A DNA stretch of 24,000 nt, taken from assembly GCF_037104725.1 (NCBI RefSeq), contig NZ_JBAWSX010000014.1, forward strand, positions 1 through 24,000. The letters are read 5' to 3'. The position numbers and the translations under genes were made by a program. This DNA is from Bacillus bruguierae. Lineage in GTDB: Bacteria > Bacillota > Bacilli > Bacillales > Bacillaceae_G. The notes under the pieces are model-generated. The model saw only the letters and a list, made by a program, of their open reading frames with translations. It did no database searches and was not told the DNA's origin. Shown here piece after piece: positions 1-17,517 of the stretch. The stretch's first letter is position 1, and every line of letters starts with the position of its first letter.

Positions 1-4
1 CCTC

Positions 5-268
5 CTAATGCACTAATCCTAATAGTGTATTTATTACGTCATCTTTTTGCATTGATTTTTCAATTATAATTTTCCATACTTGTTCATCTGATTCATAAAT
101 TCCTTTATTAATGTATGAATCTTTTATCTTATTAAACATACTCTCAGCTGTTATTCCAATTAGATTACAGTATTTTTTAATATTTCTTTCCTCTAAACAA
201 GCTATCCCCCAGCAGTCATATCTCCCCTTACTACAATTTTTTGCTGTAATGATTTTTATAATTTGCAA
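5..268 (-). CDS. Small ORF (87 aa, TTG start), probably the remnant of a toxin C-terminal tip
   Basis: Its TAG stop overlaps an AGGAGG. In the duplicate copy that AGGAGG is the RBS of the 149-aa gene 12097-12546 (typical toxin-immunity coupling). No convincing RBS or ATG of its own. The duplicate copy carries a nonsense codon. Confidence 0.3.
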   Translation of the reverse strand: MQIIKIITAKNCSKGRYDCWGIACLEERNIKKYCNLIGITAESMFNKIKDSYINKGIYESDEQVWKIIIEKSMQKDDVINTLLGLVH

Positions 269-270
269 GA

Positions 271-305
271 AAAAAGCACTTCTAGATTTATTCAGAAGTG
301 CTTTT
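271..305 (-). terminator. Rho-independent terminator after gene 314-712
   Basis: Stem AGCACTTCT/AGAAGTGCT extended by A/T pairs, followed on the minus strand by a T-run. Lies 9 nt past the stop codon. Duplicated at 12826-12860. Confidence 0.7.
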
Positions 306-313
306 ACTATTAC

Positions 314-712
314 TTATTTAATATTATATTGCTCTTTAATTTTCATCAACAACTCTTCAATAATCTCTTTCTTTTCAGGATTTTTTCCTATATAAAATTC
401 ACATGCTGTTTGCAGGTATTCACATAATTCTTCGTGGGTCACGATGTCTTCCCATTCTTCGTCTATACCGTAATAGAATAATACTTTATTTTCTCCGAAA
501 TACTCTTCATCACTTTGATCAAATTCATCTGAATATACTACGCCAATGGTATCTCGTCTTTCAACATCCTCTTTAAGAAATCCTTTTAAAATGTCTACAA
601 AATCATAATTAAACACAAACTGTCCTAATACAATAACGGTATAATTCTTTTTTAAGTTCTTTTGTTCAAAAATATCATAAAACTTTTCAAACTCTTCTTT
701 TCTATTTTGCAT
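314..712 (-). CDS. Toxin-less (orphan) immunity-type protein, 132 aa; paralog of 12869-13255
   Basis: RBS AGGAAGTGAGAG before the ATG; small acidic protein. The C-terminal 30 aa (ACEFYIGKNPEKKEI.EELLMKIKEQYNIK) are shared with the 128-aa paralog. The overall pattern (EEYFG.NKVLFY ... Y.YL ... PE.K.E..LL..IKE) resembles 6939-7328, the gene coupled to the EndoU tip. Confidence 0.7.
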   Translation of the reverse strand: MQNRKEEFEKFYDIFEQKNLKKNYTVIVLGQFVFNYDFVDILKGFLKEDVERRDTIGVVYSDEFDQSDEEYFGENKVLFYYGIDEEWEDIVTHEELCEYLQTACEFYIGKNPEKKEIIEELLMKIKEQYNIK

Positions 713-810
713 TTTCTCTCACTTCCTAACTACTTATTGCCAAATTCAAAAACAGTTCAAAAATGGCACATTCTAGAGGACTATGCAATCTTGATATTAA
801 CTTATAAGGA

Positions 811-832
811 AACCTTGACCGAAGTCAAGGTT
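811..832 (-). terminator. Hairpin downstream of gene 853-1308 (weak terminator candidate)
   Basis: 9-bp stem AACCTTGAC/GTCAAGGTT with a 4-nt loop. The minus-strand 3' tail is TTTCCTT, only a weak T-run. Confidence 0.4.
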
Positions 833-852
833 GAAGACGTACAATCTTAGGT

Positions 853-1308
853 CTATTTATAATACTTGATACACCTTTCTTGAAAAGGGATTCTATCATC
901 GTGCAGCACTTCTTCTTGCAGCAATTTTGTTATATTCTCTACTTTTCCAATGAATAGTGCGAAGAAGTCGCCCGAATTTGGATATGCAAATAGTCCATAC
1001 CCCTTTGGTGACAGTATTTTGTTGACCTCCTTGATCTTTTCAGGTAAAAATTCATAATGAAATGCTTCTAATTTCTCGAGTTCTTCTTGTGTTGCTAATT
1101 CAATTTGGTGGGCAAATTCGTAATCAAGAATAAAATTGACAATTTCTTGATATTCCTCACCTTTATAGTCAACGTATAAAAACTGTTTCGTCGTCAATCC
1201 ATATTTTAATAGGTCTTCATGTAAGTCATAACTTCCTTGCTCTTTCAAAAACGTTTCCAAATCCTTGCTATCAGGAAATATAATCTGTGCTATCCCTTTA
1301 TCCGGCAT
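853..1308 (-). CDS. Hypothetical acidic 151-aa protein, second gene of an immunity-type pair
   Basis: Start moved to the ATG at 1308 (MPDKGIAQ...), preceded by GGGAGGAAG. The longer track ORF (to 1392) would overlap the upstream gene, whose stop is at 1325. No family recognised. Confidence 0.7.
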   Translation of the reverse strand: MPDKGIAQIIFPDSKDLETFLKEQGSYDLHEDLLKYGLTTKQFLYVDYKGEEYQEIVNFILDYEFAHQIELATQEELEKLEAFHYEFLPEKIKEVNKILSPKGYGLFAYPNSGDFFALFIGKVENITKLLQEEVLHDDRIPFQERCIKYYK

Positions 1309-1324
1309 ATTAGCTTCCTCCCTT

Positions 1325-2299
1325 TTATTGAAATAATTCTCCATGCTTGTTAGGAATATATTCTGGGTAGTTTTTACGATAAAATTGATCAATCATCTGA
1401 AGCACGGGATCCCATTCAGGGTATGGCTCACGTTCTGCAAATACCATTTTCGCTTCTGGAGTATTCATCAGAAAATTATCGAATTGAGTAGGTACTGGCA
1501 ACCCTAGTTGTTTCCTTACATGGATCAAGAATAAGATTTCAAAAGGATAAAATCCGTATCCGAAATCACCAAATTCACCGAACTGTCCGATTTCAGAAGC
1601 TAATGCAGAATGATACTGAGACATTATCGAAATTAGATGTTCTATTTCTTCTAAATCACCAGTCGACCAACGTTCCAGCACTTCATCATAAATGTTCAGG
1701 TCTTCAGGGATTAAGTCGCATCGCAGTTCAGCTTCCTTAAACTTATTTATCACAGTTAGATGCAATTTTTCATTCGTTCCCATGATGGTTTTATTTCTAT
1801 ACTGCAAGTACAACTCTAGCAAAAACCAAATATGTCTATCTTCTTCATTGGCATCTATTAAATGTCCACCGAAGTGATGAGTCATAAAATCATATAATAT
1901 ATTTTCTTCCTTCTCCCATCCATACATTGCAAAATGAACTAATGTGAAGACGACTTCGCTAAACAAATATTCCAAGAACATCCCTGGATACTTGCTTGTA
2001 TAGAGATCCTGTCCCATGCACTGGTAAAATAAAACCTTCTGCATGTTCTTTAATCCTTCTACATTGTTTCCACCGCTGATCAATACATCATTTTTCCATA
2101 GTGACAAGTAATATGAAGAAATTTGGTTTAGATTTATTAATAGTATGTGATCCTTCTCTGTTTCATTTTGCTCAACGATTTTCTCGTTCTCTTTTCTACT
2201 AACATTATATTTATCTTTCACATCTTCAAATTTGATTCCATCCACAAAATTTTTGCTATATCTTTTAAAAGCCATTTCTAACTTTTTTTGGTTTATCAT
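1325..2299 (-). CDS. 324-aa protein, putative immunity protein (possibly PoNi/DUF1911-like; weak recall)
   Basis: RBS GGGAGGA before the ATG. Sits directly downstream of a degraded toxin remnant. The helical, aromatic-rich C-terminal half (FYPFEILFLIHVRKQLGLP) is reminiscent of DUF1911-type immunity proteins. The family call is not verifiable by eye. Confidence 0.75.
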   Translation of the reverse strand: MINQKKLEMAFKRYSKNFVDGIKFEDVKDKYNVSRKENEKIVEQNETEKDHILLINLNQISSYYLSLWKNDVLISGGNNVEGLKNMQKVLFYQCMGQDLYTSKYPGMFLEYLFSEVVFTLVHFAMYGWEKEENILYDFMTHHFGGHLIDANEEDRHIWFLLELYLQYRNKTIMGTNEKLHLTVINKFKEAELRCDLIPEDLNIYDEVLERWSTGDLEEIEHLISIMSQYHSALASEIGQFGEFGDFGYGFYPFEILFLIHVRKQLGLPVPTQFDNFLMNTPEAKMVFAEREPYPEWDPVLQMIDQFYRKNYPEYIPNKHGELFQ

Positions 2300-2342
2300 T
2301 GCATCCTCCCTATGAATTAATCTATTTCCTTATTCCAGTTCT

Positions 2343-2733
2343 TTACCTGTAACTCATCAACACCGAATCCAATATCAGTGATCTTGATATCTGTTTCAAC
2401 TCTATTGAACTACCCCCACCTACCGTTGCGCGCTTGAGGTAGGGGTCTTCTCGCCAGATATGATAAAATCCAATTGTAGACCAGGACTCTCCTCCATCAG
2501 GTGGATCCATATTAAACACCTATTTATGGGTTATTTTACCACATTTTTGATTAGAACGGTGAATGTTCCCCCTTAATCTCATCATCCATAATCTTACCTC
2601 TCTCTAGATGATACTTATTGATAGTAACCCTTTCTTTGATTCGCTATCATCGTACCGCCTCTAGCTAGTTCAAAACCTTTGAATGCAGCTGCTATATTCC
2701 AGATTTTTATCTTTAAGCCGATCTGTTTTACAT
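2343..2733 (-). pseudogene. Degraded orphan toxin gene (TG-junction remnant plus broken tip)
   Basis: The minus-strand reading gives L-C-K-T-D-R-L-K-D, homologous at nucleotide level to the F-K-T-G-Q-L-K-D junction at 16541-16565. Short ORFs in shifting frames follow (e.g. MDPPDGGESWSTIGFYHIWREDPYLK, 2343-2510). Locally GC-richer than the surroundings. Confidence 0.45.
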
Positions 2734-3030
2734 AAACTAACTATCAGCTTGCTTATACGAATCTTTTATTTAAAATATCGGTTAAACAAATAATTTTCTT
2801 CTAAAACAAAAAAGGGCTGTTCCATAAGCAAGTAAAACCAACTTATGGAACACCCTTTTATTTTAACTATCTATTAATCATGTAATTTGTTTAAAAACTC
2901 AGTGAAGTTACTTGCCACGTAAAATACATTTTCTCTTGCTACTTCCTCTGCTTCTTCTGCTGTAATCCCTTCACTTTCCATCAGTGCTTCTTTTTCCCAT
3001 GCACCCTCATGTTCCCAAAAAACCACTATC
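2709..3030. repeat. Junction module copy 1 (partner 16541-16862)
   Basis: Near-identical stretch: TG-remnant codons, a ~80-nt spacer, the terminator hairpin and the last ~50 codons of the SUKH-1 gene. Similarity drops further into the gene. Confidence 0.85.
2814..2855 (-). terminator. Strong bidirectional-type terminator after the SUKH-1 gene
   Basis: GGGCTGTTCCATAAG ... CTTATGGAACA(-)CCC, A-run before and T-run after. This copy lacks one G in the right arm. Three copies in the window. Confidence 0.8.
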
Positions 3031-3362
3031 GGTTGGTCCCTACGACCTCTAAAATCAAAACAAATTAAGTTTCCTGCGGGATCAAATCCAATTGGAAATA
3101 ACTTACTAGGCAAGGTATCTTTATAGTCATCATAAGTTTCAAGTATAAACTCTTCACTCTCAGGATTAAAAGATAATAGTGAACCAAAAACTCTTTCAAT
3201 ACCTTCAACATCAAAAAGCATTGGTTCAACATGTCCTCCATTATTTATCGCAACACATTCTATATAGTCCATCGGAAAATCAAAACCAGTACCTTTTAAA
3301 GTTTCTTTGACATCATCTGTACTAATTTTATTATATGTATACTTCCATACTAAATTACTCAT
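2874..3362 (-). CDS. SUKH-1 (SMI1/KNR4) family immunity protein, 162 aa
   Basis: Motifs 'FPMDYIECVAINNGG', 'LLSF', 'FDPAGNLICFD' and 'VVFWEHE' are typical of SMI1/KNR4. Its ATG overlaps the stop of the WHH fragment (ATGA) with GGGGGGAG as RBS. Paralog at 16706-17194. Confidence 0.9.
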   Translation of the reverse strand: MSNLVWKYTYNKISTDDVKETLKGTGFDFPMDYIECVAINNGGHVEPMLFDVEGIERVFGSLLSFNPESEEFILETYDDYKDTLPSKLFPIGFDPAGNLICFDFRGRRDQPIVVFWEHEGAWEKEALMESEGITAEEAEEVARENVFYVASNFTEFLNKLHD

Positions 3363-3622
3363 CTAATATCTCCCCCCCATAATTTGTTTCCACCAAAATG
3401 ATTTACACCGTGAGTATCAAATATTACTAACTGTATTTCCCCAGATATTTGATGATGATGCCAAGTTAAATCCGATATACGTGGCAATCCTATTTTTATT
3501 TCTTTTAACTGTTTTGGAGTAAATATTTCTTTTAGAATCTCTCCCTTCTCTATAGCCTTCTTTAACATTTGAGTACACTCTTTAAACTGTATATCATCTG
3601 GCTTAATATATAAACTTTGTAA
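3359..3622 (-). pseudogene. 5'-truncated HNH/EndoVII-type 'WHH' nuclease toxin tip
   Basis: Contains 'DLTWHHHQISGEIQLV...HGVNHFGGNKLWG' (WHH signature). The open frame runs up to an in-frame TAG at 3623-3625, with no upstream secretion domain and no RBS. Confidence 0.6.
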
Positions 3623-3916: not shown

Positions 3917-4312
3917 CTAATCTTCATAAATTACCGAACCCATATACCTAAGGTTCCTACCATCAAGTTTTGCTTCCTCAACAAGTTCTTCATATTCAAA
4001 ATCATATAACCTAATGACAATATTGTATTGTTCTTCTAAATTTTCACCATAAAAGTCTTCAAGTTCACTTATAATTGATTCAGAATACGAAGCATTCTTT
4101 AGTAATTCAGACAAAGAAGATGTAGAATATTCATTATAGGTACATTCTAATAAGTCTTGGTTGTACTCAATGAAATCTACTTGAAAATCATTCATAAAAC
4201 TCGAAGGAATCCTGTCTCCCTCATTATCATATTTTATTGCTACATACTTGCTTAACAAATTCTCATTACTACAATTTCCGAACCAAAGAGAAACAGCTCC
4301 TGGGTTTTCCAT
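3917..4312 (-). CDS. Immunity protein, Imm22-like, 131 aa
   Basis: RBS AAGGAGGA. N-terminal 'GAVSLWFGNCSNENLLSKYV' and acidic C-terminal 'YNIVIRLYDFEY' resemble the Imm22 pattern as recalled. Directly follows the GH-E-type toxin remnant. Confidence 0.7.
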   Translation of the reverse strand: MENPGAVSLWFGNCSNENLLSKYVAIKYDNEGDRIPSSFMNDFQVDFIEYNQDLLECTYNEYSTSSLSELLKNASYSESIISELEDFYGENLEEQYNIVIRLYDFEYEELVEEAKLDGRNLRYMGSVIYED

Positions 4313-4335
4313 ATTAATCCTCCTTTTCTAATTAT

Positions 4336-5059
4336 CTAAGTCCTTCTGGTAATGCATCGACCCCACCGCTTAAAAATTGGCGCCCGTGATACTAAATGCC
4401 ATTCATGGTACCCACCGGGATAACAAATCCTACTCGCAATGATAGTCCTTAATTTTGGAGTAGTCCAAGCCAGTTCAAATTCATCTACGCTCAATTCATT
4501 AAACCATTTTGCAAAGTCTTTACTTCCGGGCATAGTCTCTGGGAGTAAAGGTTCTGGTCCTAGATGTTTCTTTAACAAAATTGTCTCTTACAAGTTTATT
4601 TAATTGCGCATTTGATAATCTTTTTTTCTTCTGTTTCTTACTAGCAGAAGGTTTTTTTCTTATGCCGGGGTTCCGTTCTACTTGCTTTAGGTCTTACTGG
4701 CTTCGAGATGCTAGTATTATCCGTACCCTTAGTGCACTTATAAAATTATAACGCTCGTTTCACTTTTCATGCTTAAACAAAAAAGCACTCGTCGCCTATT
4801 GTAGACAATGAAGTGAACCCGCCATCTCATACCTTTTTCCTGGAATCCACTTATACTCCATAAGAGTTTTAATCGCAGCTTGTACCTTCTTGTCTGCTTC
4901 TATGAATGCTGTTTTTACAACTGTTTTCCCTCTTTGCAGTGCATCCCCCAGTTTTTGGGCAAAGGATTTTGCTTTTGAGGCAATCATTGTGACGCCTTCT
5001 GCAATTGGCTTGGTTGCCTTGATAACAGATTTATTGACTTGTATAAAGTTTTCTATTTT
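4336..5059 (-). pseudogene. Frameshifted orphan toxin gene ending in a GH-E/HNH-like nuclease tip
   Basis: Three collinear frame segments: KIENFIQ...MIASKAKSF...(4796-5059); GTDNTSISKPVRPK/PSASKKQKKKRLSNAQLNKLV; then LKKHLGPEP...YPGGYHEWHLVS (4336-4578). Frame changes fall next to A7 runs. The 'GGxHEW' motif suggests the GH-E branch of HNH/EndoVII. Confidence 0.55.
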
Positions 5060-5120
5060 CTACCCTACAGCAGTCTATGTATCTGTTTTTGAATTCCCCA
5101 ATAGCACAAAAATATAAAAA

Positions 5121-5142
5121 AGAACTGGAGTTTCACCAGTTC
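5121..5142 (-). terminator. Terminator immediately after gene 5143-5829
   Basis: Stem AGAACTGG/CCAGTTCT with a 6-nt loop, followed on the minus strand by TTTTTT. Abuts the stop codon. Confidence 0.7.
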
Positions 5143-5829
5143 TCAGTTGCTTTCAAGCAGCTTATGAATACGTAATTCTAGGTCTTGTTTCTCTTTTAAC
5201 AAAAGCTGTTCCTCTGTTTCATTGACATTAAATTGAGACAACTCTTTTATAACACCTTTTGGGATTATAAGGTTTTGTTTTACTAAATACTCTCCTAATG
5301 TTGTATATATAGCCATCTTTTCACTAAGTGTATTTTTGCAATCTCTTTTAAAGCGTTCTAACACATTACTTACAATAGCTTCTGATGATTGCTCACTTTT
5401 AACACTAATTGTAAGGTATTGATACACTTCATTTACTATTTCTTCATAATACCATCTTGCTCTTGGACAATAATCTACTGGAATTTTTTCAAGTCTTTCT
5501 AACGCCTTTTCTCGACGAATAATTAACTCTTCAAGTTGATTTTTAGTTATTTGTTTTTTTTCAATTTGTTTCTCGATTTTTTGAAAATCAATAGATTTTA
5601 ATTCTTTTATCCTATTTTCTTTTGCTATTATAAAAATTCTTGCCTTTTCCGACACTGTTTCTACATACAATACATTTATTAATGCCTTTTCCATTTCATC
5701 TTCAATGTTTGGGCTGTAATACTCATCAAAAGTTCTTGCCAATGCTTCACTATTACTCATATTATCTTGTCGTTTATATTCTAAAAAATCCTCATTAAAC
5801 GCTTCAATGCACTCTTGATACTCCCACAT
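5143..5829 (-). CDS. Helical immunity protein (about 228 aa) for the adjacent deaminase-like tip; internally duplicated
   Basis: Start chosen at the ATG at 5829 (MWEYQE), 6 nt after AAGAGGTG. The N-terminal half (SNSEALARTFDEYY...) and C-terminal half (QSSEAIVSNVLERF...KMAIYTTLGEYLV) both resemble the 116-aa protein at 13442-13792. Confidence 0.8.
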   Translation of the reverse strand: MWEYQECIEAFNEDFLEYKRQDNMSNSEALARTFDEYYSPNIEDEMEKALINVLYVETVSEKARIFIIAKENRIKELKSIDFQKIEKQIEKKQITKNQLEELIIRREKALERLEKIPVDYCPRARWYYEEIVNEVYQYLTISVKSEQSSEAIVSNVLERFKRDCKNTLSEKMAIYTTLGEYLVKQNLIIPKGVIKELSQFNVNETEEQLLLKEKQDLELRIHKLLESN

Positions 5830-5843
5830 TAAACTCACCTCTT

Positions 5844-6617
5844 TTATTTTTTAGGGGGAATTGGTTTTCCATCATTATGAATCACTTCAATTTCAATATC
5901 TGGATAATCCTTTTTAAATTGACTGATAATACTATTACAACTATCACAAGTATCTTTCTCAGTAAATAATTTTATTTTACCCTTTGCATCATGATTACCC
6001 CCTAACCGTGATGCTACATCATTTATAATCTTATACTCAGAATCTTGATCCCTTAAATAACTTACTCCATCTGCATTCTTCGCCTCTTGTGCTTCATACT
6101 TTGGGGTTTTAGGCTTTGGTGAAAATCCTTCTAAGTTCGGATTTTCACCAGCATCCTTAACTTGACTATGGGCATAAAATTCATTTTTATTTATCCCTTC
6201 AATATTTACCTCAGCGTATCCCATATTTGATCCTGATTTGTTCAGAACTCTATTTGATAGAGTTCCTTTAATCTCTGAAACTCTATTAAGAATATCAGCA
6301 TCTTTACTTGAATCAATTGATCTAGTTGGGAATCGAGAAGTCTCTCTACCACCACTCTCTTCCAACTTCGAAATCCGACTATGAATAGCCTCTTTCCTAT
6401 TTTCAAAAGTCGCTTTCACTGAACCTCTCAAGTTCGTTCCACGAAGAACTGTGTTGGCCCCACCGGCGGCGGCATCAGCAGCGTGAGCGTAGGCTAAGGA
6501 ATTATCTAGGGATTTACCAAATAATGCCCTTCTCGCCACATTAATTCCACCTGCTACACCATTTATCACCTTGATCCATTTTAAAAACATCGGAACATTG
6601 CGGCAGGAGTGGCACAA
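5844..6617 (-). CDS. Orphan deaminase-like toxin tip (paralog A), 5'-truncated by an IS3 remnant
   Basis: C-terminal '[18 protein letters not shown]...[15 protein letters not shown]...[18 protein letters not shown]' (DxE ... CxxC spacing like a deaminase core). The first ~10 codons (TTG start, [11 protein letters not shown]) are antisense to IS3-derived sequence, so there is no native start. Confidence 0.7.
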
Positions 6618-6918
6618 TCAAATGAAGAAATACCAAAATGTATTGAAAGAAAAAGGAATTACACAAAGTATGTCCCGTAAGGGGAATTATTTAGATAACG
6701 CAGTCATCGAAAATTTCTTTGGCTTATTAAAATGCTCCCTACTTTACTTACAAGAGTTCAAAAGTATGGAGCATTTTACATTAGAATTAGAAAAATATAT
6801 TCACTACTACAATAATGACCGAATTAAAACAAAATTAAAAGGAATGAGCCCTGTACAATACAGAACGCATTCCTCATTAACCGCTTAAAATATGTGTCTA
6901 ACTTTTTGGGTTCACTTC
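6600..6918 (+). mobile_element. IS3-family (IS150-like) transposase 3' fragment with right end
   Basis: '[29 protein letters not shown]...[23 protein letters not shown]' is the conserved OrfB C-terminus of the IS3 family. No N-terminal part and no left end. The terminal '...TTTTTGGGTTCA' is consistent with an IS3-type IR. Confidence 0.85.
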
Positions 6919-6938
6919 ATCTAGCAAAATAGGCTATT

Positions 6939-7328: not shown

Positions 7329-7353
7329 TATTATCCTCCTAAAAATTGTAAAG

Positions 7354-10595: not shown

Positions 10596-10678
10596 AATCC
10601 GCTCCTTTTTCTTGTCCTTGGAACCAGTATGGACAAGATTTTGAGAGAATAAGCACAGAAGATGAAGAAACTAGTCAG

Positions 10679-11017
10679 TTATATATAGTTTGAAATATAT
10701 CCAGACACTTCACTTATTTCTTCTTTTAAAGCTTTTAATTCATCTTCGTTTAAATTATACTTTGATAAATCTAACATATTAAAACTTTCAATCTTCTTTT
10801 TCAAAACTTGTTTAAAATCATCACCTAATGGTTTTCCATATCTAGCAAATCTAGTAGCAATTGTTATAGGCATCACTATTTCATCAAGCTCATTCTGTGG
10901 TTGGTCATAATATATACATTGTGATGCTGCAACATCATAAGTACTTCCTTGTTCTATCCACATGTAAAAAGATTCCAAAGTTCTAAACTTACTTTCATAA
11001 AAATTGTATTTGTTCAT
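10679..11017 (-). CDS. Helical immunity protein (112 aa) for deaminase-like tip C
   Basis: ATG at 11017 with GAAGG upstream, 46 nt after the toxin stop. The last codon and the stop (ATA TAA) are supplied by the IS630 end. Confidence 0.75.
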   Translation of the reverse strand: MNKYNFYESKFRTLESFYMWIEQGSTYDVAASQCIYYDQPQNELDEIVMPITIATRFARYGKPLGDDFKQVLKKKIESFNMLDLSKYNLNEDELKALKEEISEVSGYISNYI

Positions 11018-11066
11018 CAAATATAACCTTCTTTCTATTTTTTTATCTTATATATTACTTCAATAT

Positions 11067-11786
11067 CTATGTTGTGATATAATTTTTAAATTGTTCTATT
11101 ATATCTAAACAACTTGGGCAACATTCCAATTCAGTAAACAATTTAATTTTCCCTGCTGTACTATACTCGGTTCCCAATTTATTTTGTATTTCTGAAAGTA
11201 TTTTAAATTCAGTATCAACATCCCTTAACCATGCTCCAGCTCCATCTACTACATTGTTTCCATCAACTTTTATTGCCTTTAATAAAGTTGAATCTGGTTT
11301 TATTAAAATGCCAGTTCCCTTAATACTCTCTATCTCTGCCTGTATTGCACTATGTGCAAAATATTCATTTTTAGTTATACCCTCTATAGTTACTTCAGCA
11401 CATTCAAAATTACCTTTTCCTATAGCCCATTGTGGCAATTTATTTTTATGTTTATTGATTATATTTAAGAAATTAGAATTTACCACTTCATCAAGTAATC
11501 TTATAGTAGTTTTAGCTTCTGCCACTCCCTTAGCAAGCGAAGCCTCAAGCCCTTGAATCTTACCATCCATAAACTTAGTACTCTCTGCATGATGCGTATT
11601 GACCCACTCAGTAATCTTTCCTGAGCCACCTTGTTCCCCTATCAACACACTGTCTCCAGCTGGTTTAGGCCCCTTGAAGAAGGCAAGTGTATTATCCATC
11701 CCTTGGGCCATTTTTCTGCCAAACTGATACATTTTTTCATTTCTGGATTTTCCTGTTTTTAATCCGTAAAATTCGAAATAATCTAA
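11067..11786 (-). CDS. Orphan toxin: TG-junction remnant + G-L-E-A-S-L-A block + deaminase-like tip (paralog C)
   Basis: The frame is open from 11786 (LDYFEFYGLKTGKSRNEKMYQFGRKM...), so it begins inside a pre-toxin region without an RBS. 'IQGLEASLAKG', then 'CAEVTIEGITKNEYFAHS...RDVDTEFKILSEI...KIKLFTELECCPSCLDII'. Confidence 0.75.
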   Translation of the reverse strand, partial: LDYFEFYGLKTGKSRNEKMYQFGRKMAQGMDNTLAFFKGPKPAGDSVLIGEQGGSGKITEWVNTHHAESTKFMDGKIQGLEASLAKGVAEAKTTIRLLDEVVNSNFLNIINKHKNKLPQWAIGKGNFECAEVTIEGITKNEYFAHSAIQAEIESIKGTGILIKPDSTLLKAIKVDGNNVVDGAGAWLRDVDTEFKILSEIQNKLGTEYSTAGKIKLFTELECCPSCLDIIEQFKNYITT

Positions 11787-11831: not shown

Positions 11832-11919
11832 CTAAAACAAAAGGGGCTGTTCCATAAGCGAGTAAAACCAACTTATGGAACAGCCCTTTTATTTTGAATA
11901 CCTATTAATCACGTAATTT
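11832..11919. repeat. Partial third copy of the junction module
   Basis: Terminator hairpin plus 'TTAATCACGTAATTT', which equals the last 5 codons and stop of a SUKH-1 gene; the rest of that gene is missing. A further spacer scrap (TAATTTTCTTTCTCTAAAACA) lies at 12075-12097. Confidence 0.7.
11844..11886 (-). terminator. Terminator hairpin, copy 2 of 3
   Basis: Perfect 15-bp stem GGGCTGTTCCATAAG/CTTATGGAACAGCCC, flanked by an A-run and a T-run. Confidence 0.8.
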
Positions 11920-12096
11920 TTTTAGTTCGTATTTTACTGATTGTATTTTAAGCACCTGCTAATTGGATCGTAAACTATAATCCTGAGATCTAATTTATTT
12001 GGGACATTTATCTAGAAAATACACAAAAAATATTTGCGAACTCGTTTTATCCATTGGTAGACATTGCTATACGCGTAATTTTCTTTCTCTAAAACA

Positions 12097-12546
12097 CTAG
12101 CTTTTATTCTGTGCTTTAATTATTTCCATACCCTTCATAAATTTCTTAATAGAATCCTCATTCTTCATTAATCCACTTAAGTATAACAATGCATCAAATT
12201 CTTCAGGGTCTGCATCATAATATATCATTCCCGGATCAATAAAAGGTTCATAAACTATATTACATATATTTTGTCCCCCCATTTGTACACTAAAACATCT
12301 TTCCAATTTGGAAATATAACTATTTGTACAAATTAGATCGTCTACAGATGTTTCAAATGATTGTCCATTGTAGAAAAAAAATAGTTTGTTATCTTTAACA
12401 TAAATACCAACTACCTGTCCATCTTCGCTAAATCCTCCCACGCCTTGTCTAACTAACTGTACTTTATTTTTTTCAACTATTGAATATCCACTAGGTTCTA
12501 ATATAATATATGTGTCAATCTTAGGGTAATTATTCAGTATTATCAT
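12097..12546 (-). CDS. Hypothetical 149-aa protein, immunity-type position
   Basis: Strong RBS AGGAGGGGGAG 4 nt before the ATG. The RBS overlaps the stop of the small degenerate upstream ORF. No family recognised. Confidence 0.75.
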   Translation of the reverse strand: MIILNNYPKIDTYIILEPSGYSIVEKNKVQLVRQGVGGFSEDGQVVGIYVKDNKLFFFYNGQSFETSVDDLICTNSYISKLERCFSVQMGGQNICNIVYEPFIDPGMIYYDADPEEFDALLYLSGLMKNEDSIKKFMKGMEIIKAQNKS

Positions 12547-12558
12547 AAGCTCCCCCTC

Positions 12559-12823
12559 CTAATGCACTAATCCTAATAGTGTATTTATTACGTCATCTTT
12601 TTGCATTGATTTTTCAATTATAATTTTCCATACTTGTTCATCTGATTCATAAATTCCTTTATTAATGTATGAATCTTTTATCTTATTAAACATACTCTCA
12701 GCTGTTATTCCAATTAGATTACAGTATTTTTTAATATTTCTTTCCTCTAAACAAGCTATCCCCCAGCAGTCATATTTCCCCTTGCTTCAATTTTTTGCTG
12801 TAATAATTTTTTATAATTTGCAA
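12559..12823 (-). pseudogene. Duplicate of the small ORF 5-268, inactivated
   Basis: Relative to copy 1, a TGT codon is TGA and a 1-nt insertion lies near the 5' end. Only 44 codons remain open. Confidence 0.45.
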
Positions 12824-12825
12824 GA

Positions 12826-12860
12826 AAAAAGCACTTCTAGATTTATTAAGAAGTGCTTTT
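12826..12860 (-). terminator. Terminator after gene 12869-13255 (duplicate of 271-305)
   Basis: Same AGCACTTCT/AGAAGTGCT stem plus T-run. Confidence 0.7.
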
Positions 12861-12868
12861 ACTATTAC

Positions 12869-13255
12869 TTATTTAATATTATATTGCTCTTTAATTTTCA
12901 TCAACAACTCTTCAGTAATCTCTTTCTTTTCAGGATTTTTCCCTATATAAAATTCACATGCAGCACTTAAATATTGGTACAATTGATCATAATTCACAAT
13001 ATCGTAGTCATTATCACCATCGCCAGAATAAAATAAAACTTTATTTTGTCCAAAATACTCCTCATCATCTTGTTCATATTCACCTGAATAAATTACTCCA
13101 TTATATTCCCAACGCTCTCCCTCTTTACTTTTAAAACCTTCTAAGTGTTGTAGAAAGTTACGTCCATTTACATATATATTCAAAACATCAATAACTGCCT
13201 CTTTATTCAAATTTCTCTGTTTCATTATCTCAATAAATTCTTCATATACGTTCAT
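12869..13255 (-). CDS. Toxin-less immunity-type protein, 128 aa; paralog of 314-712
   Basis: RBS GGGTGGA. The N-terminal ~95 aa are diverged from the 132-aa paralog; the C-terminal ~30 aa are near-identical because they lie inside the 408-bp repeat. Confidence 0.7.
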   Translation of the reverse strand: MNVYEEFIEIMKQRNLNKEAVIDVLNIYVNGRNFLQHLEGFKSKEGERWEYNGVIYSGEYEQDDEEYFGQNKVLFYSGDGDNDYDIVNYDQLYQYLSAACEFYIGKNPEKKEITEELLMKIKEQYNIK

Positions 13256-13441: not shown

Positions 13442-13792
13442 TTAATCATATAGACGTTTCTCTTCAATTTCATGTAAAATTTTCCCGATTCGAGAAAATA
13501 ATCCTACATATTGGTCGCGAGTTAACTCTTGTTGAATTAAATCTGAGTTTAGATGCTTGAGTGTTTCGACTAAGTTATTCTTTGAATTTCTATAGATCTT
13601 TGGCAATGATATTAGAAGTTCTCCGTAAGCAGTATAGACAATTGCCTTTTTGGATTCTGATTGGTTTAAAACTGTCTCATATTCTCCGAAAGTTCTTTCT
13701 ATCGCTTCTTCACTATCTATCTTTTCATCTTCTTTAAAATCATTATACGTTTCATTAAAATACTCAAATATTTCTTCATATGTTAATGCCAT
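13442..13792 (-). CDS. Helical immunity protein (116 aa) for deaminase-like tip B
   Basis: RBS AGGAGGG, 20 nt after the toxin stop. 'SEEAIERTFGEYE...KKAIVYTAYGELL' is homologous to both halves of 5143-5829. Confidence 0.8.
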   Translation of the reverse strand: MALTYEEIFEYFNETYNDFKEDEKIDSEEAIERTFGEYETVLNQSESKKAIVYTAYGELLISLPKIYRNSKNNLVETLKHLNSDLIQQELTRDQYVGLFSRIGKILHEIEEKRLYD

Positions 13793-13812
13793 TGATAATT
13801 CCCTCCTATTGT

Positions 13813-14373
13813 TTATGGTGATATCATATTACCATTATTGTGAACCACTTTGATTTCTATTTTGGGGTACTTTATTTTAAAGTGATTTATAACTCCATTA
13901 CAACTTGAGCATGTATCTTTTTCAGTAAACAGTTTAATCCTTCCTTGGGCATTCACATTATCACCTAATTGATTTGCAATGTCATTGAGTATTTTATACT
14001 CAGTATCAGCATCTCTTAAATATGGTTTCCCTCCATTTGAGTTAGGTGCTTCTGTAGCCTTAAATATCGGATTTTCCGGTTTAAAAGAAAAGTTTTCGGT
14101 TCCTGGAATTTTCTTTGCGGGATCATGTATTCCACTGTGCGAATAAAATTCCGACTTATTTATTCCAATAACATCAACTTCTGCATATGCAAAATTACCA
14201 GTTTCTTTAAATCTATTAGATAGACCACCTCTAGCTTCAGAAACTTTATCAAGTATATGCCCTTCTGTTTCTGGATTTACAATACGCGTTGGAAATCTAG
14301 CCCCACTACCACCCGTGGGGCGGATCTTGAACATGCAAAAAAATAAAAAACTGGGATTTTGAGCACGTAACAA
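13813..14373 (-). CDS. Orphan deaminase-like toxin tip (paralog B), 5'-truncated
   Basis: 'GGSGARFPTR...YAEVDVIGINKSEFYSHS...LRDADTEYKILNDIA...[18 protein letters not shown]', closest to paralog A. The first ~17 codons (MLRAQNPSFLFFCMFKI) come from the GC-rich scar and are not homologous. Confidence 0.7.
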   Translation of the reverse strand: MLRAQNPSFLFFCMFKIRPTGGSGARFPTRIVNPETEGHILDKVSEARGGLSNRFKETGNFAYAEVDVIGINKSEFYSHSGIHDPAKKIPGTENFSFKPENPIFKATEAPNSNGGKPYLRDADTEYKILNDIANQLGDNVNAQGRIKLFTEKDTCSSCNGVINHFKIKYPKIEIKVVHNNGNMISP

Positions 14374-14539
14374 CTGCCAGTAACCACTTGATCTCGCCCG
14401 TTACTTAGGAAGAGCTATCCGCCCTTCGGTTGTTAGGAAATACTTAGCTTCTCCACATCGTCAATCAGCGCTTTCCATGGCTCCCACATCAGCCATCTAG
14501 ATTTATTGGAATCTCGACCATCTCGGTTCGTCACTCGCA

Positions 14540-14675: not shown

Positions 14676-14806
14676 TATTAATTATAAAAGTGAGAATAAA
14701 AATAGACTGTGTCCGCTACATATCTGTAACTTACACAGTCTATCTTACACCCTCAAGAAAACACGAAAATTGTTACACATCCTTATTAGTCAATTCGATT
14801 TTTTGT

Positions 14807-15205
14807 TTAAAAATCAGATGGTAAACTCAAAATGTATTCAATCCTGCCTGTATTTTCTGTTTCTATTATGTCATAACCTCCTTTTTTTAACATTTCTTTG
14901 CACAATTCTATATCACTGCAAAGCTGATCTATATCTTTTTGATCCCTGCTATCTTCAAAATCTTCAATATTAAAGTATCCTTCCAGCCTATTGAAAATAA
15001 AATCGGCAATTTGTTTCGACTTAAGGCCCTCTAATGCAATGGATACAAAATATAAAGATTTAGTAAATGGACTATAATTCAAACGTCTCGCTTCTTCTTC
15101 TAAAATTTTTGCTGAAGCTTGTGCAACAGTTAAACCTTCCTCATCAATATACTCTTCAAATCCATATGCCACTGAGTTTTTTATTCTTTCATAACTATTT
15201 ATCAT
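14807..15205 (-). CDS. Helical immunity protein (132 aa) for deaminase-like tip D
   Basis: RBS AAGGAG, 13 nt after the toxin stop. Acidic helical protein ('LTVAQASAKILEEEARRL...SLYFVSIALEGL') with the same architecture as the other three. Confidence 0.8.
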   Translation of the reverse strand: MINSYERIKNSVAYGFEEYIDEEGLTVAQASAKILEEEARRLNYSPFTKSLYFVSIALEGLKSKQIADFIFNRLEGYFNIEDFEDSRDQKDIDQLCSDIELCKEMLKKGGYDIIETENTGRIEYILSLPSDF

Positions 15206-15218
15206 ACTATCAACTCCT

Positions 15219-15590
15219 TTATTTCATGCTATTTGTATAAATATCCAACTTAACATTTAGTAATTTTTCCCTGAATTCAAAAATTAAATTTGTACGGCTT
15301 TGACATACGTCAAAATCTGAAAATAGATGTATTTCCCCTATAATATTTGGATCTTTTATTTGTGAAGCTATATCTTCAAGAATCTTTGCTTCAGTATCAT
15401 TATATCGAGGAAATTTGTCATCTACATACGATTCAAGTGATTTAGTATCTTTGGAATGTGTAAAATCTCCGAAACTATCACCAAAGCTATCAGCAGAATG
15501 AACCTGACTATGCGCTTGATAATTAGTTTTTACACCAGGAATATTTACATCTGCCGTATGTTTGCTAACCATCATGAGTATTTGATTCAA
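15219..15590 (-). pseudogene. Truncated, probably inactive deaminase-like tip (paralog D)
   Basis: TTG start with no RBS. 'TADVNIPGVKTNYQAHS...RYNDTEAKILEDIA...IHLFSDFDVCQSRTNLI'. The second Cys of CxxC is Arg (CGT codon at 15294-15296). Confidence 0.6.
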
Positions 15591-15629
15591 AACTCATATT
15601 GCTTTTCACCCTAAATATCTAAAAGTAAA

Positions 15630-15659
15630 AACCTTGAAAGGCAAAAGCCAATCAAGGTT
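15630..15659 (-). terminator. Terminator after gene 15728-15979
   Basis: Stem AACCTTGA/TCAAGGTT with a 14-nt loop. On the minus strand it is followed by TTTTTACTTTT. Confidence 0.6.
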
Positions 15660-15727
15660 CTTATATTGTGCTATATTTCTTGCATACCTATATCTAATAA
15701 AAAATTTATAAAATCATAAGCAAGCTA

Positions 15728-15979
15728 TCAAGGTTCAATAGTTGTTCGATCAACAAAATTTTGATTCTCTTTAATAATCATTCTCGAAAGTCGTCTTCCT
15801 GCTCTCTTAAAAAAGAATTCATCAGCGAACTCTTGTGAATCAATTTGCGATAGCTGGTTGATAACTCCATTTTTTTTATCATATTCAATTCGTCCCATTA
15901 AATCTTCATTCGGTCCATATTGATATACTACCCTCTCTTCATCCTCAAACTCCTTCAACATTAAAACAAAAACTGCCAT
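15728..15979 (-). CDS. 83-aa immunity protein for the unknown toxin tip
   Basis: The RBS GAGGAGTG overlaps the toxin stop codon; the ATG is 6 nt after the stop. Small protein ('FEDEERVVYQYGPNEDLMGRIEYDKKNG') typical of compact immunity proteins. Confidence 0.75.
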   Translation of the reverse strand: MAVFVLMLKEFEDEERVVYQYGPNEDLMGRIEYDKKNGVINQLSQIDSQEFADEFFFKRAGRRLSRMIIKENQNFVDRTTIEP

Positions 15980-15985
15980 GAATCT

Positions 15986-16498
15986 TCACTCCTCATAGTT
16001 TTCCTCCCAATTCCAAGGCCTTCCAGATTCTATTGTTTTGTCATGAGCTGTTCTATAATTAGTCTGGAATATCCCCTCAAATTTTGATTCGAAAATTTCG
16101 TGATCCTTTATATGGGAGTTATTAAAAACATGATCTTTAATCCTTTGTATTCTAGCAACAGAAAAGCCCGTATTTTTAGCGATAGCATTCACATCTTCCG
16201 TTCCTAAATCCCTAAATTTTCCATTTACCTCTTCTGCAATAGCTTCTTCCTTGAAGAACTGCTCTGGGGATATATTTCTTCCACCAGTTTCAGCACATTG
16301 TATAGAATTACCCGTCCCCTTAGCAAGCGAAGCCTCTACACCCTCAATTTTATCATCTATAATCTTTTTACTCTCTATATGATGCTTATCAACCCAGCCA
16401 TGGAAATCTGTACCACCCTGCTTAATTGTTATTACACCATGTTCATTGATTTCAAATCTCTTGGTTTTGGCTGTCATATTATCTATGTTTTGCGGCAT
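15986..16498 (-). CDS. Orphan toxin: G-V-E-A-S-L-A block + C-terminal tip of unrecognised family
   Basis: 'DKIEGVEASLAKG', then a ~105-aa tip ('ARIQRIKDHVFNNSHIKDHEIFESKFEG...RPWNWEENYEE'). The upstream TG remnant (FKTGQLKDRKLGNDKMY) is cut off by an in-frame TAG. Confidence 0.7.
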   Translation of the reverse strand: MPQNIDNMTAKTKRFEINEHGVITIKQGGTDFHGWVDKHHIESKKIIDDKIEGVEASLAKGTGNSIQCAETGGRNISPEQFFKEEAIAEEVNGKFRDLGTEDVNAIAKNTGFSVARIQRIKDHVFNNSHIKDHEIFESKFEGIFQTNYRTAHDKTIESGRPWNWEENYEE

Positions 16499-16540
16499 TC
16501 TTTTACCAAGCTAATACATCTTGTCATTTCCAAGTTTTCT

Positions 16541-16862
16541 ATCTTTAAGCTGACCAGTTTTAAATAAACTAACTATCAGCTTACTTATACGAATCTTTTA
16601 TTTAAAATATCAGTTAAACAAATCATTTTCTTCTAAAACAAAAAGGGCTGTTCCATAAGCGAGTAAAACCAACTTATGGAACAGCCCTTTTATTTTTACT
16701 ATCTATTAATCATGTAATTTGTTTAAAAACTCAGTGAAAGTACTTGCTACATAAAATACATTCTCTCTTGCTACTTCCTCTGCTTCTTCCGCTGTAATCC
16801 CTTCACTTTCCATCAGTGCTTCTTTTTCCCATGCATCTTCATGTTCCCAAAAGACAACAATG
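16541..16862. repeat. Junction module copy 2 (partner 2709-3030)
   Basis: See 2709-3030; the offset is about 13832 nt. Confidence 0.85.
16645..16687 (-). terminator. Terminator hairpin, copy 3 of 3
   Basis: Perfect 15-bp stem GGGCTGTTCCATAAG/CTTATGGAACAGCCC, 18 nt past the SUKH-1 stop. Confidence 0.8.
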
Positions 16863-17194
16863 GGATCTTCTTCATGGTTTTTATAATCAAAGCAAATTAA
16901 ATTTCCTGCTGGATCAAAAGCAAACGGAATCAATTCTTTAGGTAATGTATCGCTGTAGTCATTATATACATCAACTATATACTCGTCACCATTTTCATCA
17001 AAAGATAACAAAGTTCCAAATACTCTTTCACGATTATTCACATTAAATAATTCTGGTTCAACATTAGCACCATTATTTATAGCTACACATTTTATATAAT
17101 CCTTTGGAAATTTGACACCTATGTCATTACCAATTTTTTTTACAAAATCTTCACTTACAGCTTCATCTGCAAATTGCCACTCTACTTTACTCAC
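16706..17194 (-). CDS. SUKH-1 (SMI1/KNR4) family immunity protein, 162 aa
   Basis: 'FPKDYIKCVAINNGA', 'LLSF', 'FDPAGNLICFDY', 'VVFWEHE'. ATGA overlap with the WHH fragment. The C-terminal 50 aa are near-identical to 2874-3362. Confidence 0.9.
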   Translation of the reverse strand: MSKVEWQFADEAVSEDFVKKIGNDIGVKFPKDYIKCVAINNGANVEPELFNVNNRERVFGTLLSFDENGDEYIVDVYNDYSDTLPKELIPFAFDPAGNLICFDYKNHEEDPIVVFWEHEDAWEKEALMESEGITAEEAEEVARENVFYVASTFTEFLNKLHD

Positions 17195-17397
17195 CTAATA
17201 TCATCTCCCCATAATTTATTGCCACCTAAGTGACTTACCTTATGTGTCTTAGACACTACTAACTGCATTTTTCCTGGCACCTGATGATGATACCATGTTA
17301 AATCTAAGATTCGTGGCAATTCCAACTCTATCATCTTTAATTGTTTAGGTGTAAAAATATCTCTCGGTATCTCTCCTTTATTTATTGCTGCTTTCAA
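17191..17397 (-). pseudogene. 5'-truncated WHH-type nuclease tip, signature altered
   Basis: TTG start directly after a TAA. 'DLTWYHHQVPGKMQLV...HKVSHLGGNKLWG'; the first His of W-H-H is Tyr in this copy. Confidence 0.6.
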
Positions 17398-17475
17398 TTA
17401 TCTTATGACCCTTACCATCCTAATCTTCAATCCTTTGACACATTGTTATTACTTCCTTCAATTTCTTTATATGAG

Positions 17476-17517
17476 AAAAAGAGGTAATGTTCTTCATTTA
17501 AAACATCACCTCTTTTT
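17476..17517 (-). terminator. Terminator closing the intact toxin operon
   Basis: 12-bp stem AGAGGTAATGTT/AACATCACCTCT (one G-U) flanked by an A-run and a T-run. First strong hairpin after the immunity gene 17716-18177. Confidence 0.7.

Follow-up and report, generated by a model that had tools for sequence, protein, structure and literature searches.

Detached toxin tips and retained immunity genes downstream of a probable EsaD-type polymorphic toxin operon in Bacillus bruguierae

The 24,000-nt stretch of Bacillus sp. FJAT-51639 (B. bruguierae) analyzed here, hereafter the window, lies on a 110-kb draft contig (locus tags WAZ07_19500-19655) and carries a polymorphic toxin operon followed by a long series of toxin C-terminal fragments and small intact genes. 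Judging from the sequence, it is highly probable that this series is the variable 3' region of an EsaD-type toxin locus of a type VIIb secretion system (T7SSb), made of detached cassettes of toxin C-terminal domains ("tips") and immunity genes, in which the immunity genes have been retained. Downstream of the operon, at least 17.7 kb hold 12 toxin C-terminal fragments and 15 intact immunity-like genes, all co-directional. The operon, toxin and immunity genes of the locus are all on the minus strand, and the locus therefore reads from high to low coordinates; the left edge of the window cuts the array, so that the array length is a lower bound. The observations that carry this reading are the anatomy of the array, the homology of the tips to the C-termini of full-length toxins, the pairing of tips with cognate immunity genes, a recombination breakpoint in the toxin gene, the sharing of cassettes between strains and the differential decay of tips and immunity genes. 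Below, P-numbers (e.g. P0058) denote full-length toxins of the same carrier family, L-numbers (e.g. L008) the related loci with which the window was compared, and u-numbers the array units of Table 1.

Toxin fragments were located by searching the window in all six frames with 120 full-length toxins of the family (tblastn). All 12 fragments lie on the minus strand and start at family residue ~315 or beyond, and no plus-strand toxin fragment was found in the window. If orientation were random, a 12 of 12 agreement would have a probability of ~2e-4; no inverted orphan unit was seen among more than 100 units at 33 other loci. The uniform direction claimed in the initial annotation, which was made from the letters of the window alone, thus holds. 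Eleven fragments are followed by an intact gene inside the window, and the window edge cuts through the twelfth (8-253). Comparison across genomes also bore out the expectation that the orphan tips occur elsewhere fused to full-length toxins, most of them being C-termini of toxins of the family. The u1 tip matches the final 68 aa of the 590-aa WHH toxin P0133/P0152 at 88% identity, and the u12 tip is 66% identical to the last 86 aa of P0133; u12 as a whole is a 78%-identical paralogue of u1, an array self-match of 862 nt. The u7 tip aligns from residue 315 of the 554-aa deaminase toxin P0051 and is short of ~13 C-terminal residues, the u9 tip is 47-48% identical to the C-terminus of the EndoU toxin P0055, and the ADP-ribosyltransferase (ART) remnant of u13 is 79-83% identical to the last 42 aa of the 599-aa ART toxin P0131. 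Two tiny remnants, recognized as such from the start, are both 92% identical to the last 65 aa of the 587-aa P0058 (u6 and the window edge, where the tblastn match extends to 86 aa at 73%). Pfam confirmed the proposed WHH tips (u1, u12), the four PF14424 deaminase tips (u3, u4, u7 and u10, that of u3 covering profile positions 21-145 with E=6.8e-15) and the EndoU tip (u9). The label "GH-E-like" given to the u11 tip found no support, since no Pfam family matched either this fragment or the full-length relative P0095, to residues 415-515 (of 589) of which it is 67-74% identical in two reading frames.

The units share a common layout. The gap from tip stop to immunity gene start ranges from -4, where stop and start overlap as GTGA or ATGA (u1 and u12), to 49 nt. 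The 15 immunity-like proteins of the array are without exception acidic, with an isoelectric point (pI) of 4.05-5.04, and each of the 15 genes has a Shine-Dalgarno (SD) match of 4-7 nt; among the array tips, no start codon with a good SD motif was found near the 5' end. Strong terminator-like hairpins close ten units (that of u1 with a fold dG of -33.8), and each cassette therefore looks like the detached 3' end of an operon. A single grammar for every unit had been proposed: the gaps, the acidity, the SD motifs and the start-less tips agree with it, and three immunity genes without a tip and the interruptions by insertion sequences (IS) and by 0.73 kb of non-coding DNA depart from it. Two cassettes have two downstream genes or domains, namely the 324-aa and 151-aa genes of u13 and the double Imm3 of u10.

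Synteny allowed the pairing to be checked directly for three cassettes (ART, P0058-type and WHH). The genes that follow the full-length ART toxin P0131 are 89-90% identical to those at 1325-2299 (324 aa) and 853-1308 (151 aa) of the window, the gene that follows P0058 in L004 is 57% identical to the 149-aa partner in u6, and WHH tips in the related loci are always followed by SMI1/KNR4 genes. The PF14424-Imm3 pairing of u4 and u10 agrees with a published table (Zhang et al. 2012), and the EndoU tip is followed by a CdiI_4-like gene here and in L008. For the 83-, 132-, 149-, 112- and 213-aa genes the designation as immunity-like is putative, by position, charge and conservation alone.

Toxin and immunity portions of the array have decayed to very different extents. 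All 15 immunity-like open reading frames (ORFs) are full length when compared with profiles or orthologues, whereas all 12 toxin pieces lack at least 300 N-terminal residues. The additional lesions are likewise all in tips: a linker stop and an internal deletion in u2, the C-terminal loss in u7, two frame changes and a 3' truncation in u11, and a frameshift in the ART remnant. Thus no lesion falls in the ~7 kb of sequence that codes for immunity proteins, and at least 5 fall in ~5 kb of tip coding sequence, a split with a probability of ~0.01 if random. In the window and 32 other loci, no immunity pseudogene was found save a ~20-nt SMI1_KNR4 relic. In L022, 726 nt including the 5' part of the u4 tip are absent and both flanking immunity genes are kept at 99%. 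Comparisons of orphan with orphan gave ratios of nonsynonymous to synonymous substitution rates (dN/dS) of 0.32 for the 324-aa gene, 0.13 for the 151-aa gene and 0.14 for the u1 immunity gene, values that rest on 11-54 substitutions. The u7 tip has a dN/dS of 0.73, and the u3 tip shows 7 nonsynonymous and 0 synonymous changes (1 and 1 in the u3 immunity gene); by these figures, the u3 and u7 orphan tips look relaxed. We take the dN/dS pattern as supportive only. The decay of toxin parts next to intact immunity genes, which had been noticed in the first reading of the sequence, is therefore seen in ORF integrity, in the distribution of lesions and in the dN/dS values of the immunity genes.

Comparison with L008, the syntenic locus of a close relative, identified the site at which tips are replaced. 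The two loci are 97.7% identical from the operon start to toxin codon ~307 and unrelated thereafter; L008 expresses a PF14424 tip with Imm3 in place of the window tip. The recombination breakpoint is evidently located directly after the motif FNPNxGKNVVQS, the tips having been swapped between the window and L008. Cassettes are also shared at a distance from the main gene. The u2 tip 3' end with its immunity gene is 97% identical, and the u7 tip 3' part with its immunity gene 95% identical, to orphans of L008; L022 matches the u3 block at 98.6% and the u4 block at 99.2% identity; and the ART cassette is 95% identical to an orphan of L018 and 94% identical to an expressed toxin end in L015. As for the operons, those of L015, L018 and L022 reach only 68-70% identity with that of the window, whereas the shared cassettes are 94-99% identical, and the cassettes therefore move independently of the operon. 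Linker sequence is kept by u2, u7 and u10. The 5' part of u7 is 85.6% identical to the L008 main toxin and the u10 linker 96.9% identical to the L022 main toxin, and the window main-toxin linker is itself 88% identical to an L022 orphan. Nine of the 12 tips are without carrier or linker homology. The resident toxin gene has no exact match of more than 16 nt anywhere in the array, and its best local similarity there is 28 nt at 89%.

The resident toxin belongs to a large family. With the N-terminal 410 residues as query, 872 proteins were retrieved at E<1e-5, carrying at least 12 tip types. The 120 carrier relatives listed measure 488-622 aa, and all source-named ones come from the B. cereus group. 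Their tips include EndoU, PF14424 deaminase, YwqJ deaminase, WHH, AHH, LHH, Tox-HNH-HHH, GHH, Colicin-DNase, Endonuclease_NS_2, TNT, Ntox15, MPTase4 and ADP-ribosyltransferases. In an alignment of 25 members a conserved carrier is followed by one of two alternative linker types, a short "(A/L)AKGTGN" junction and hypervariable tips. The invariant FNPNxGKNVVQS closes the carrier at residues 295-306 (window 18896-18931). The "(A/L)AKGTGN" motif, near residue ~400, stands directly 5' of the hypervariable tips; it also opens several orphans of the u2 family in other genera. We propose FNPNxGKNVVQS and "(A/L)AKGTGN" as two candidate demarcation motifs of the carrier family. The resident tip itself carries a C-A-E ... 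C-x-x-C signature and is 27-30% identical to family members bearing PF14431 (YwqJ-deaminase), with a direct Pfam YwqJ-deaminase score below threshold (E=0.12).

We call the 540-aa toxin EsaD-type rather than LXG because it has no match to Pfam LXG, NCBIfam or PDB sequences and an hhalign probability of 0.2%. Specifically, Pfam found no PF04740 LXG domain even at E<=10, NCBIfam gave no match, a profile search of PDB sequences gave no relative, and the 0.2% was obtained by aligning the carrier with two LXG toxins, an LXG profile of only 2 sequences. The targeting factors Lap1/Lap2 (DUF3130/DUF3958) or Lap3/4 are absent upstream, where the genes are EsxC-like, WXG100, DUF5081 and the 109-aa gene. 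EsaD itself has been described as a very divergent LXG domain by HHpred (PMC10653861). The EsaD-like assignment is thus made by gene order and not by carrier similarity, and the toxin is not a recognizable LXG protein. The founding member of DUF5081 is EsaE, which acts as chaperone for EsaD, the T7SSb nuclease of S. aureus (PMC12478183). Yang et al. (2023) reported that esxC-esxB-esaE-esxD, arranged in this order, is always found together with esaD or esaD-like genes, that esaD-like genes carry other toxin domains, e.g. deaminases, and that certain species of Bacillus have the cluster away from the T7SS locus (PMC10653861). As far as its gene order goes, the window operon fits this description. 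EsaD-like genes with NADase tips are also on record (PMC10653861, PMC9484751).

Two further points concern the small genes of the operon. The 132-aa first gene had no family match in the Pfam copy used, which appears older than the PF26323 model, and the 109-aa gene in the EsxD position had no match in Pfam or NCBIfam. In NCBI and UniRef the latter gene (19848-20177) is labelled "MFS transporter", here and in relatives; this label is almost certainly a propagated misannotation. Directly upstream of the operon lies a gene for a secreted M60-like (enhancin-type) metallopeptidase (22151-23560), which is syntenic in L008, L009 and L022; the loci of B. cereus sensu stricto are flanked by MFS/NETI genes instead. 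At the other end of the operon, the terminator that had been predicted at 17476-17517 is present as a hairpin (17517->17476, AGAGGTGATGTT...AACATTACCTCT followed by TTTTT; fold dG -13.2), and a second hairpin was found between it and the SUKH-3 gene, at 17620->17586.

Coordinates of all features are collected in Table 1. The initial inventory was incomplete in that it missed two IS elements, the three tip-less immunity genes and the ART remnant at 2320-2503.

Table 1. Features of the toxin operon and the downstream array, in order of decreasing coordinates.
Feature	Coordinates	Strand	Basis
132-aa helper gene in EsxC position, first in toxin operon	21305..21703	-	82.6% identical to an L004 protein with precomputed PF26323 EsxC
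WXG100 protein, EsxB position	20929..21234	-	PF06013 E=1.1e-9; present in all related loci
DUF5081 protein, EsaE-family chaperone position	20177..20908	-	PF16887 E=8.4e-86
109-aa gene, EsxD position	19848..20177	-	Synteny esxC-esxB-esaE-esxD
Intact 540-aa polymorphic toxin: carrier (1-306), linker, divergent YwqJ-like deaminase tip	18191..19813	-	
Cognate SUKH-3 immunity gene of the 540-aa toxin	17716..18177	-	PF14433 E=5e-21; 13-nt gap, AAGGAG SD, pI 4.31
Two terminator-like hairpins closing the operon	17476..17623	-	Sequence reading, fold, scan
u1: WHH tip fragment 17194-17412; SMI1/KNR4 gene 16706-17194 (GTGA overlap); terminator 16691-16641	16641..17412	-	Pfam
u2: carrier-linker fragment and all-alpha toxin domain 15986-16549; 83-aa partner 15728-15979; terminator	15626..16549	-	
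u3: N-terminally truncated PF14424 deaminase tip 15219-15593; 132-aa partner 14807-15205; terminator	14701..15593	-	
u4: complete PF14424 deaminase domain without carrier 13813-14400; Imm3 gene 13442-13792	13442..14400	-	Pfam 1.4e-38; 5.9e-25
u5: tip-less CdiI_4 gene 12869-13255 and terminator	12828..13255	-	PF18624 E=1.9e-35
u6: 65-79-aa tip remnant 12562-12800; 149-aa partner gene 12097-12546	12097..12800	-	
Relic of deleted WHH/SMI1_KNR4 cassette: ~20 nt of gene 3' end and terminator hairpin	11834..11925	-	Repeat D4, three-way alignment
u7: linker-B fragment and PF14424 tip 11067-11786; 112-aa partner 10679-11017	10679..11786	-	
IS630-family IS, 1172 bp	9510..10681	-	HTH and DDE_3 domains, terminal inverted repeats, TA duplication
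Tip-less 213-aa acidic immunity-like gene	8741..9382	-	AAGGAG SD, pI 4.37; UniRef name DUF2262
u9: EndoU nuclease tip 7354-7776; CdiI_4-like gene 6939-7328; terminator	6834..7776	-	PF14436 E=2.6e-13; CdiI_4 E=7.3e-5
IS3-type integrase (rve_2/rve_3) fragment, abuts u10 linker	6571..6888	+	Pfam 3.2e-21
u10: Nuc_N linker and complete PF14424 tip 5844-6617; double-Imm3 gene 5143-5829; terminator	5120..6617	-	Pfam
u11: frameshifted, 3'-truncated tip 4336-4693; Imm22 gene 3917-4312	3917..4693	-	PF14112 E=3.2e-22
u12: WHH/Colicin-DNase tip 3359-3622; SMI1/KNR4 gene 2874-3362 (ATGA overlap); terminator	2810..3622	-	Pfam
u13: linker relic 2615-2740; frameshifted ADP-ribosyltransferase remnant 2320-2503; 324-aa gene 1325-2299; 151-aa DUF6630-like gene 853-1308; terminator	812..2740	-	
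Tip-less CdiI_4 gene 314-712 and terminator	273..712	-	PF18624 E=1.9e-28
Tip remnant at window edge, duplicate of 12559-12800	5..313	-	Repeat D2 at 98%

Some parts of the array deserve separate mention. The search with the 120 family toxins gave no toxin fragment upstream of the CdiI_4 gene at 12869-13255. Its paralogue at 314-712 (56% aa identity) belongs to a segmental duplication, 1-545 versus 12555-13100, that comprises a CdiI_4 3' end, a terminator and a P0058-type remnant and is 90% identical overall, with 98% identity over the 257 nt of 1-257 versus 12555-12811; this block is evidence of duplication within the array or of gene conversion. The 213-aa gene at 8741-9382 has no Pfam match. 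Its product shares 93% identity with one from Anaerosacchariphilus polymeriproducens (Clostridia), which suggests a recent cross-class transfer. A 0.73-kb AT-rich stretch inside the array (7744-8470) contains no minus-strand ORF of at least 40 aa and two terminator-like hairpins (8215-8183 and 8064-8049); the plus-strand 84-aa ORF at 7781-8035 has no homologue in the libraries and loci searched. Two start-less ORF fragments on the array strand, 4796-5059 (87 aa) and 8472-8651 (59 aa), have no relative among the toxins, the immunity genes and 32 loci; they may have been left behind by some other carrier or immunity family.

The u2 tip, which had been listed as unknown, has no Pfam model and is nonetheless a widespread domain. 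An exhaustive profile search with it returned 2062 related clusters (E<=1e-3), most of the matches lying at the extreme C-terminus of proteins of ~300 to 5865 aa. Among the bearers are two PF04740 LXG toxins, one PT-TG pre-toxin protein and a distant member of the present carrier family; P0168, P0193, P0198 and P0200 are proteins of this domain family. An earlier impression that this tip is only ever an orphan came from a word-indexed search that gave short proteins only, and was overturned by the exhaustive search. The domain (15986-16300 in the window, preceded by a linker that matches family residues ~323-409) is all-alpha with the invariant pattern H...H...HE-x-FES-x-FEGIF...Y-x-x-AH. A model of the family domain is reasonable, with a predicted local distance difference test score (pLDDT) of 75, and has no PDB fold match with E<2. 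The alignment shows that the window copy has lost 33 residues at conserved positions through an in-frame deletion. Because the domain is C-terminal on many long proteins, we take it on sequence grounds to be a genuine, widespread and uncharacterized toxin domain.

Mobile elements also interrupt the array. The IS630 element has inverted repeats (TAACTGAC...) and a TA target duplication, with both junctions read directly. Its transposase is split at an A8 run into a helix-turn-helix (HTH) ORF (10059-10595) and a DDE_3 ORF (9538-10071), by either programmed slippage or mutation. The element directly adjoins the stop codon of the u7 immunity gene, and collinearity with L008 breaks at this point; L008 has a 97.6% identical copy elsewhere in its array. 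A comparison of the element with plasmids gave no match. In-silico excision lengthened the u7 immunity ORF from 112 to 149 aa, as if the insertion had truncated this gene; truncation was ruled out by the L008 orthologue, which ends at 110 aa. The junction of the IS3 remnant with a linker recurs, with different tips, in the window, in L008 (13821-14323), in L018 and twice in L022 (11191-11761 and 13249-13810), and such fusions may be a trace of IS-assisted cassette movement. Another junction, in which an SMI1_KNR4 3' end is followed by a terminator, a ~90-nt AT-rich spacer and a linker from residue ~320, is found three times in the window; one copy keeps only ~20 nt of the immunity gene, and cassette deletion is therefore evidenced. 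It is conceivable, and in our estimate rather doubtful, that the arrays are built through a few reusable composite junctions of this kind (cassette "adaptors", possibly IS-assisted) and not by generic homologous recombination alone. If true, the junctions would constitute a defined modular exchange mechanism for T7SS toxin loci, acting across lineages with operons only ~68% identical.

We assessed how common such arrays are at 23 loci from ~20 species found with the family alignment, and at 9 more loci fetched via specific toxins. Co-directional orphans were present at 19 of the 23, usually 3-6 within the visible 9-10 kb, and at 9 of the 9, making 28 of 32 other loci. In the complete chromosome of Bacillus sp. 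N5-665 (L033/L034, NZ_CP093325.1), 9 orphan units extend over 20.5 kb past the main toxin and are followed by ~15 kb more of small co-directional ORFs. (This 5.5-Mb chromosome is misfiled in PLSDB as "plasmid p1".) With 12 fragments in 18.2 kb, the window array is at the high end for tip count and is not exceptional in size or density; its description as unusually long and diverse cannot be upheld. Polymorphic toxin loci with cassette arrays and adjacent immunity genes, at a median of 1 active toxin to 3 cassettes, were described by Zhang et al. (2012), who singled out B. cereus-group genomes as immunity-rich; orphan immunity genes have been reported in Listeria and strings of esaG in S. aureus (PMC9484751). 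In the literature that we searched there are accounts of EsaD-like loci, of esaG strings and of a small number of LXG orphans, and none of EsaD-type orphan arrays in the B. cereus group.

The following sequence of events would account for the locus. The operon codes for three small partners of helical type, a chaperone of the EsaE family, a single full-length toxin and the SUKH-3 immunity protein that goes with it; we infer export by the T7SS and toxicity for the toxin. The array would be a pile of detached 3' operon ends, each with a C-terminal fragment, its cognate immunity gene or genes and usually a terminator. Recombination at the end of the carrier (codon ~307, after FNPNxGKNVVQS) and within the linker or the "(A/L)AKGTGN" junction would replace the expressed tip and immunity gene, and leave or import others downstream. 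Cassettes would pass horizontally among B. cereus-group lineages and be reshuffled further by duplication, deletion and IS activity. A detached tip, lacking start codon, ribosome-binding site and carrier, would then erode, and the immunity genes, presumably expressed, would be retained most likely as protection against matching toxins of neighboring strains.

A different role for the array would be that of a functional reservoir, whose main task is to provide other tips for recombination into the expressed toxin gene, so that the weapon is switched. In Salmonella, orphan Rhs tips are switched in this manner by recombination into the expressed gene. Here, replacement of a tip at codon ~307 has clearly happened between close relatives, u7 keeps a linker 86% identical to the main toxin of L008 and u10 one 97% identical to that of L022, u2 also retains linker, and complete catalytic domains are kept by u4, u9, u10 and u12. 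However, the resident gene shares no more than 16 nt of exact sequence with the array, with a best local match of 28 nt at 89%, only three tips keep a linker while 9 of 12 are without carrier or linker homology, and most tips are damaged, u2 being internally deleted, u7 missing its C-terminal end, and u11 and u13 being frameshifted. This particular array offers its own main gene little to recombine with, and incoming DNA or other linker variants look more plausible as donors. The "silent reservoir" of the initial annotation is thus weak in this strain, and we consider it unlikely. The tips have also to be considered as toxin halves of self-standing toxin-antitoxin modules, translated from internal starts and stabilizing the island by addiction. 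In-frame ATG codons occur in u7 (221 aa) and in u2 (170 aa), the latter annotated as a coding sequence at NCBI, and the stop/start overlaps suggest translational coupling; no SD motif precedes the u2 and u7 ATG codons, though, in most tips the truncation falls before or inside the catalytic domain, and the 33-aa deletion in u2 removes conserved residues, which leaves this explanation very improbable.

The array could also be a neutral graveyard of non-functional recombination debris, in which immunity genes are intact merely because they are short and recently acquired. In favor of this, terminators partition the array, promoter-like motifs do not exceed background, an identity of 95-99% to other strains implies that many blocks arrived recently, and IS elements and deletions are frequent. 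Against it speak ~7 kb of immunity coding sequence without a lesion next to at least 5 lesions in ~5 kb of tip coding sequence (p ~0.01), dN/dS values of 0.13-0.32 in orphan immunity genes, the SD motif kept by every immunity gene, and L022, which trimmed the u4 tip and retained both flanking immunity genes; a graveyard is therefore quite improbable. That the array is an artefact of collapsed or chimeric repeats in a draft genome is scarcely credible: the contig is a draft and contains the 257-nt repeat at 98% (1-257 versus 12555-12811), but independent assemblies contain long collinear stretches of 0.5-2.9 kb at 94-99% identity, the same architecture is found in complete genomes, and the internal repeats are short and mostly 70-90% identical. 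Several points nevertheless weigh against our preferred interpretation of the array as detached cassettes of an EsaD-type locus with retained immunity. The AlphaFold model of the toxin, built from a 25-sequence alignment, has low confidence (pLDDT 45), its sole moderately confident part being a two-helix hairpin at residues 8-108; neither Pfam nor hhalign gives an LXG signal for the carrier; and the T7SS core genes lie outside the window. The 83-, 132-, 149-, 112- and 213-aa partners fall outside recognized immunity families. The dN/dS values come from few substitutions, and pairwise values may partly predate orphaning. Finally, terminators follow most cassettes, and each immunity gene therefore needs its own promoter, while promoter-like motifs are at background (99 found versus 89.8 +/- 9.3 expected).

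This analysis documents long heterogeneous orphan arrays at EsaD-type T7SSb loci of the B. cereus group, with breakpoints and cross-strain comparison. It yields a list of toxin/immunity pairs, including partners without a recognized family and one uncharacterized toxin domain, and corrects annotations, orphan tips being called hypothetical proteins and the EsxD-position gene "MFS transporter". The recombination junction (FNPNxGKNVVQS and AKGTGN) could be usable for tip engineering.

Among known systems, the S. aureus EsaD (EssD) locus has the same accessory order, with a DUF5081 chaperone, a WXG100 protein and two further small partners, a toxin with conserved N-terminus and variable C-terminus, an immunity gene directly downstream and extra ones beyond. 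It differs in that the extra genes there are a homogeneous string of esaG (DUF600), whereas here they belong to unrelated immunity families and most are accompanied by a toxin fragment; the expressed tip is deaminase-like here and a nuclease there, and the two loci are likened by gene order, not by carrier sequence. The LXG orphans of OG1RF are also fragments without the N-terminal secretion domain, with short 5' homology to the full-length gene and an adjacent immunity gene. The carrier of the present toxin is not, however, recognizable as LXG, the tips number 12 here as compared with 3 in OG1RF, and the array has IS elements within it. With polyimmunity loci (Zhang et al. 2012) the array shares a variety of immunity genes (SUKH, Imm3, Imm22 and others) that point in a single direction. 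By definition, such loci are uninterrupted by toxin cassettes, closely spaced and probably polycistronic; here, 12 toxin fragments are interspersed among the immunity genes, and terminators intervene as well.

There is also a parallel in overall layout with the cdiA-CT/cdiI and Rhs-CT/rhsI arrays and the cassettes of Zhang et al. (2012), in which a full-length toxin is followed by co-directional C-terminal cassettes and immunity genes and in which cassettes are exchanged horizontally. FNPNxGKNVVQS and AKGTGN would be junction motifs before the tip, in the role of VENN or PxxxxDPxGL in the cdi and Rhs systems. Export differs, presumably by T7SSb here as opposed to the type V or type VI secretion system (T5SS/T6SS), the carrier is unrelated, and the toxin to cassette ratio is 1:12 here as against the median of 1:3. 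The comparison with orphan arrays of contact-dependent inhibition (CDI), Rhs and MafB systems, drawn when the sequence was first read, is thus apt for this Gram-positive toxin of T7SS type, which we would call EsaD-like and not a recognizable LXG protein. The concept is unchanged by these results: the architecture and its usual interpretation were already established, and such arrays are common at this locus across the B. cereus group.

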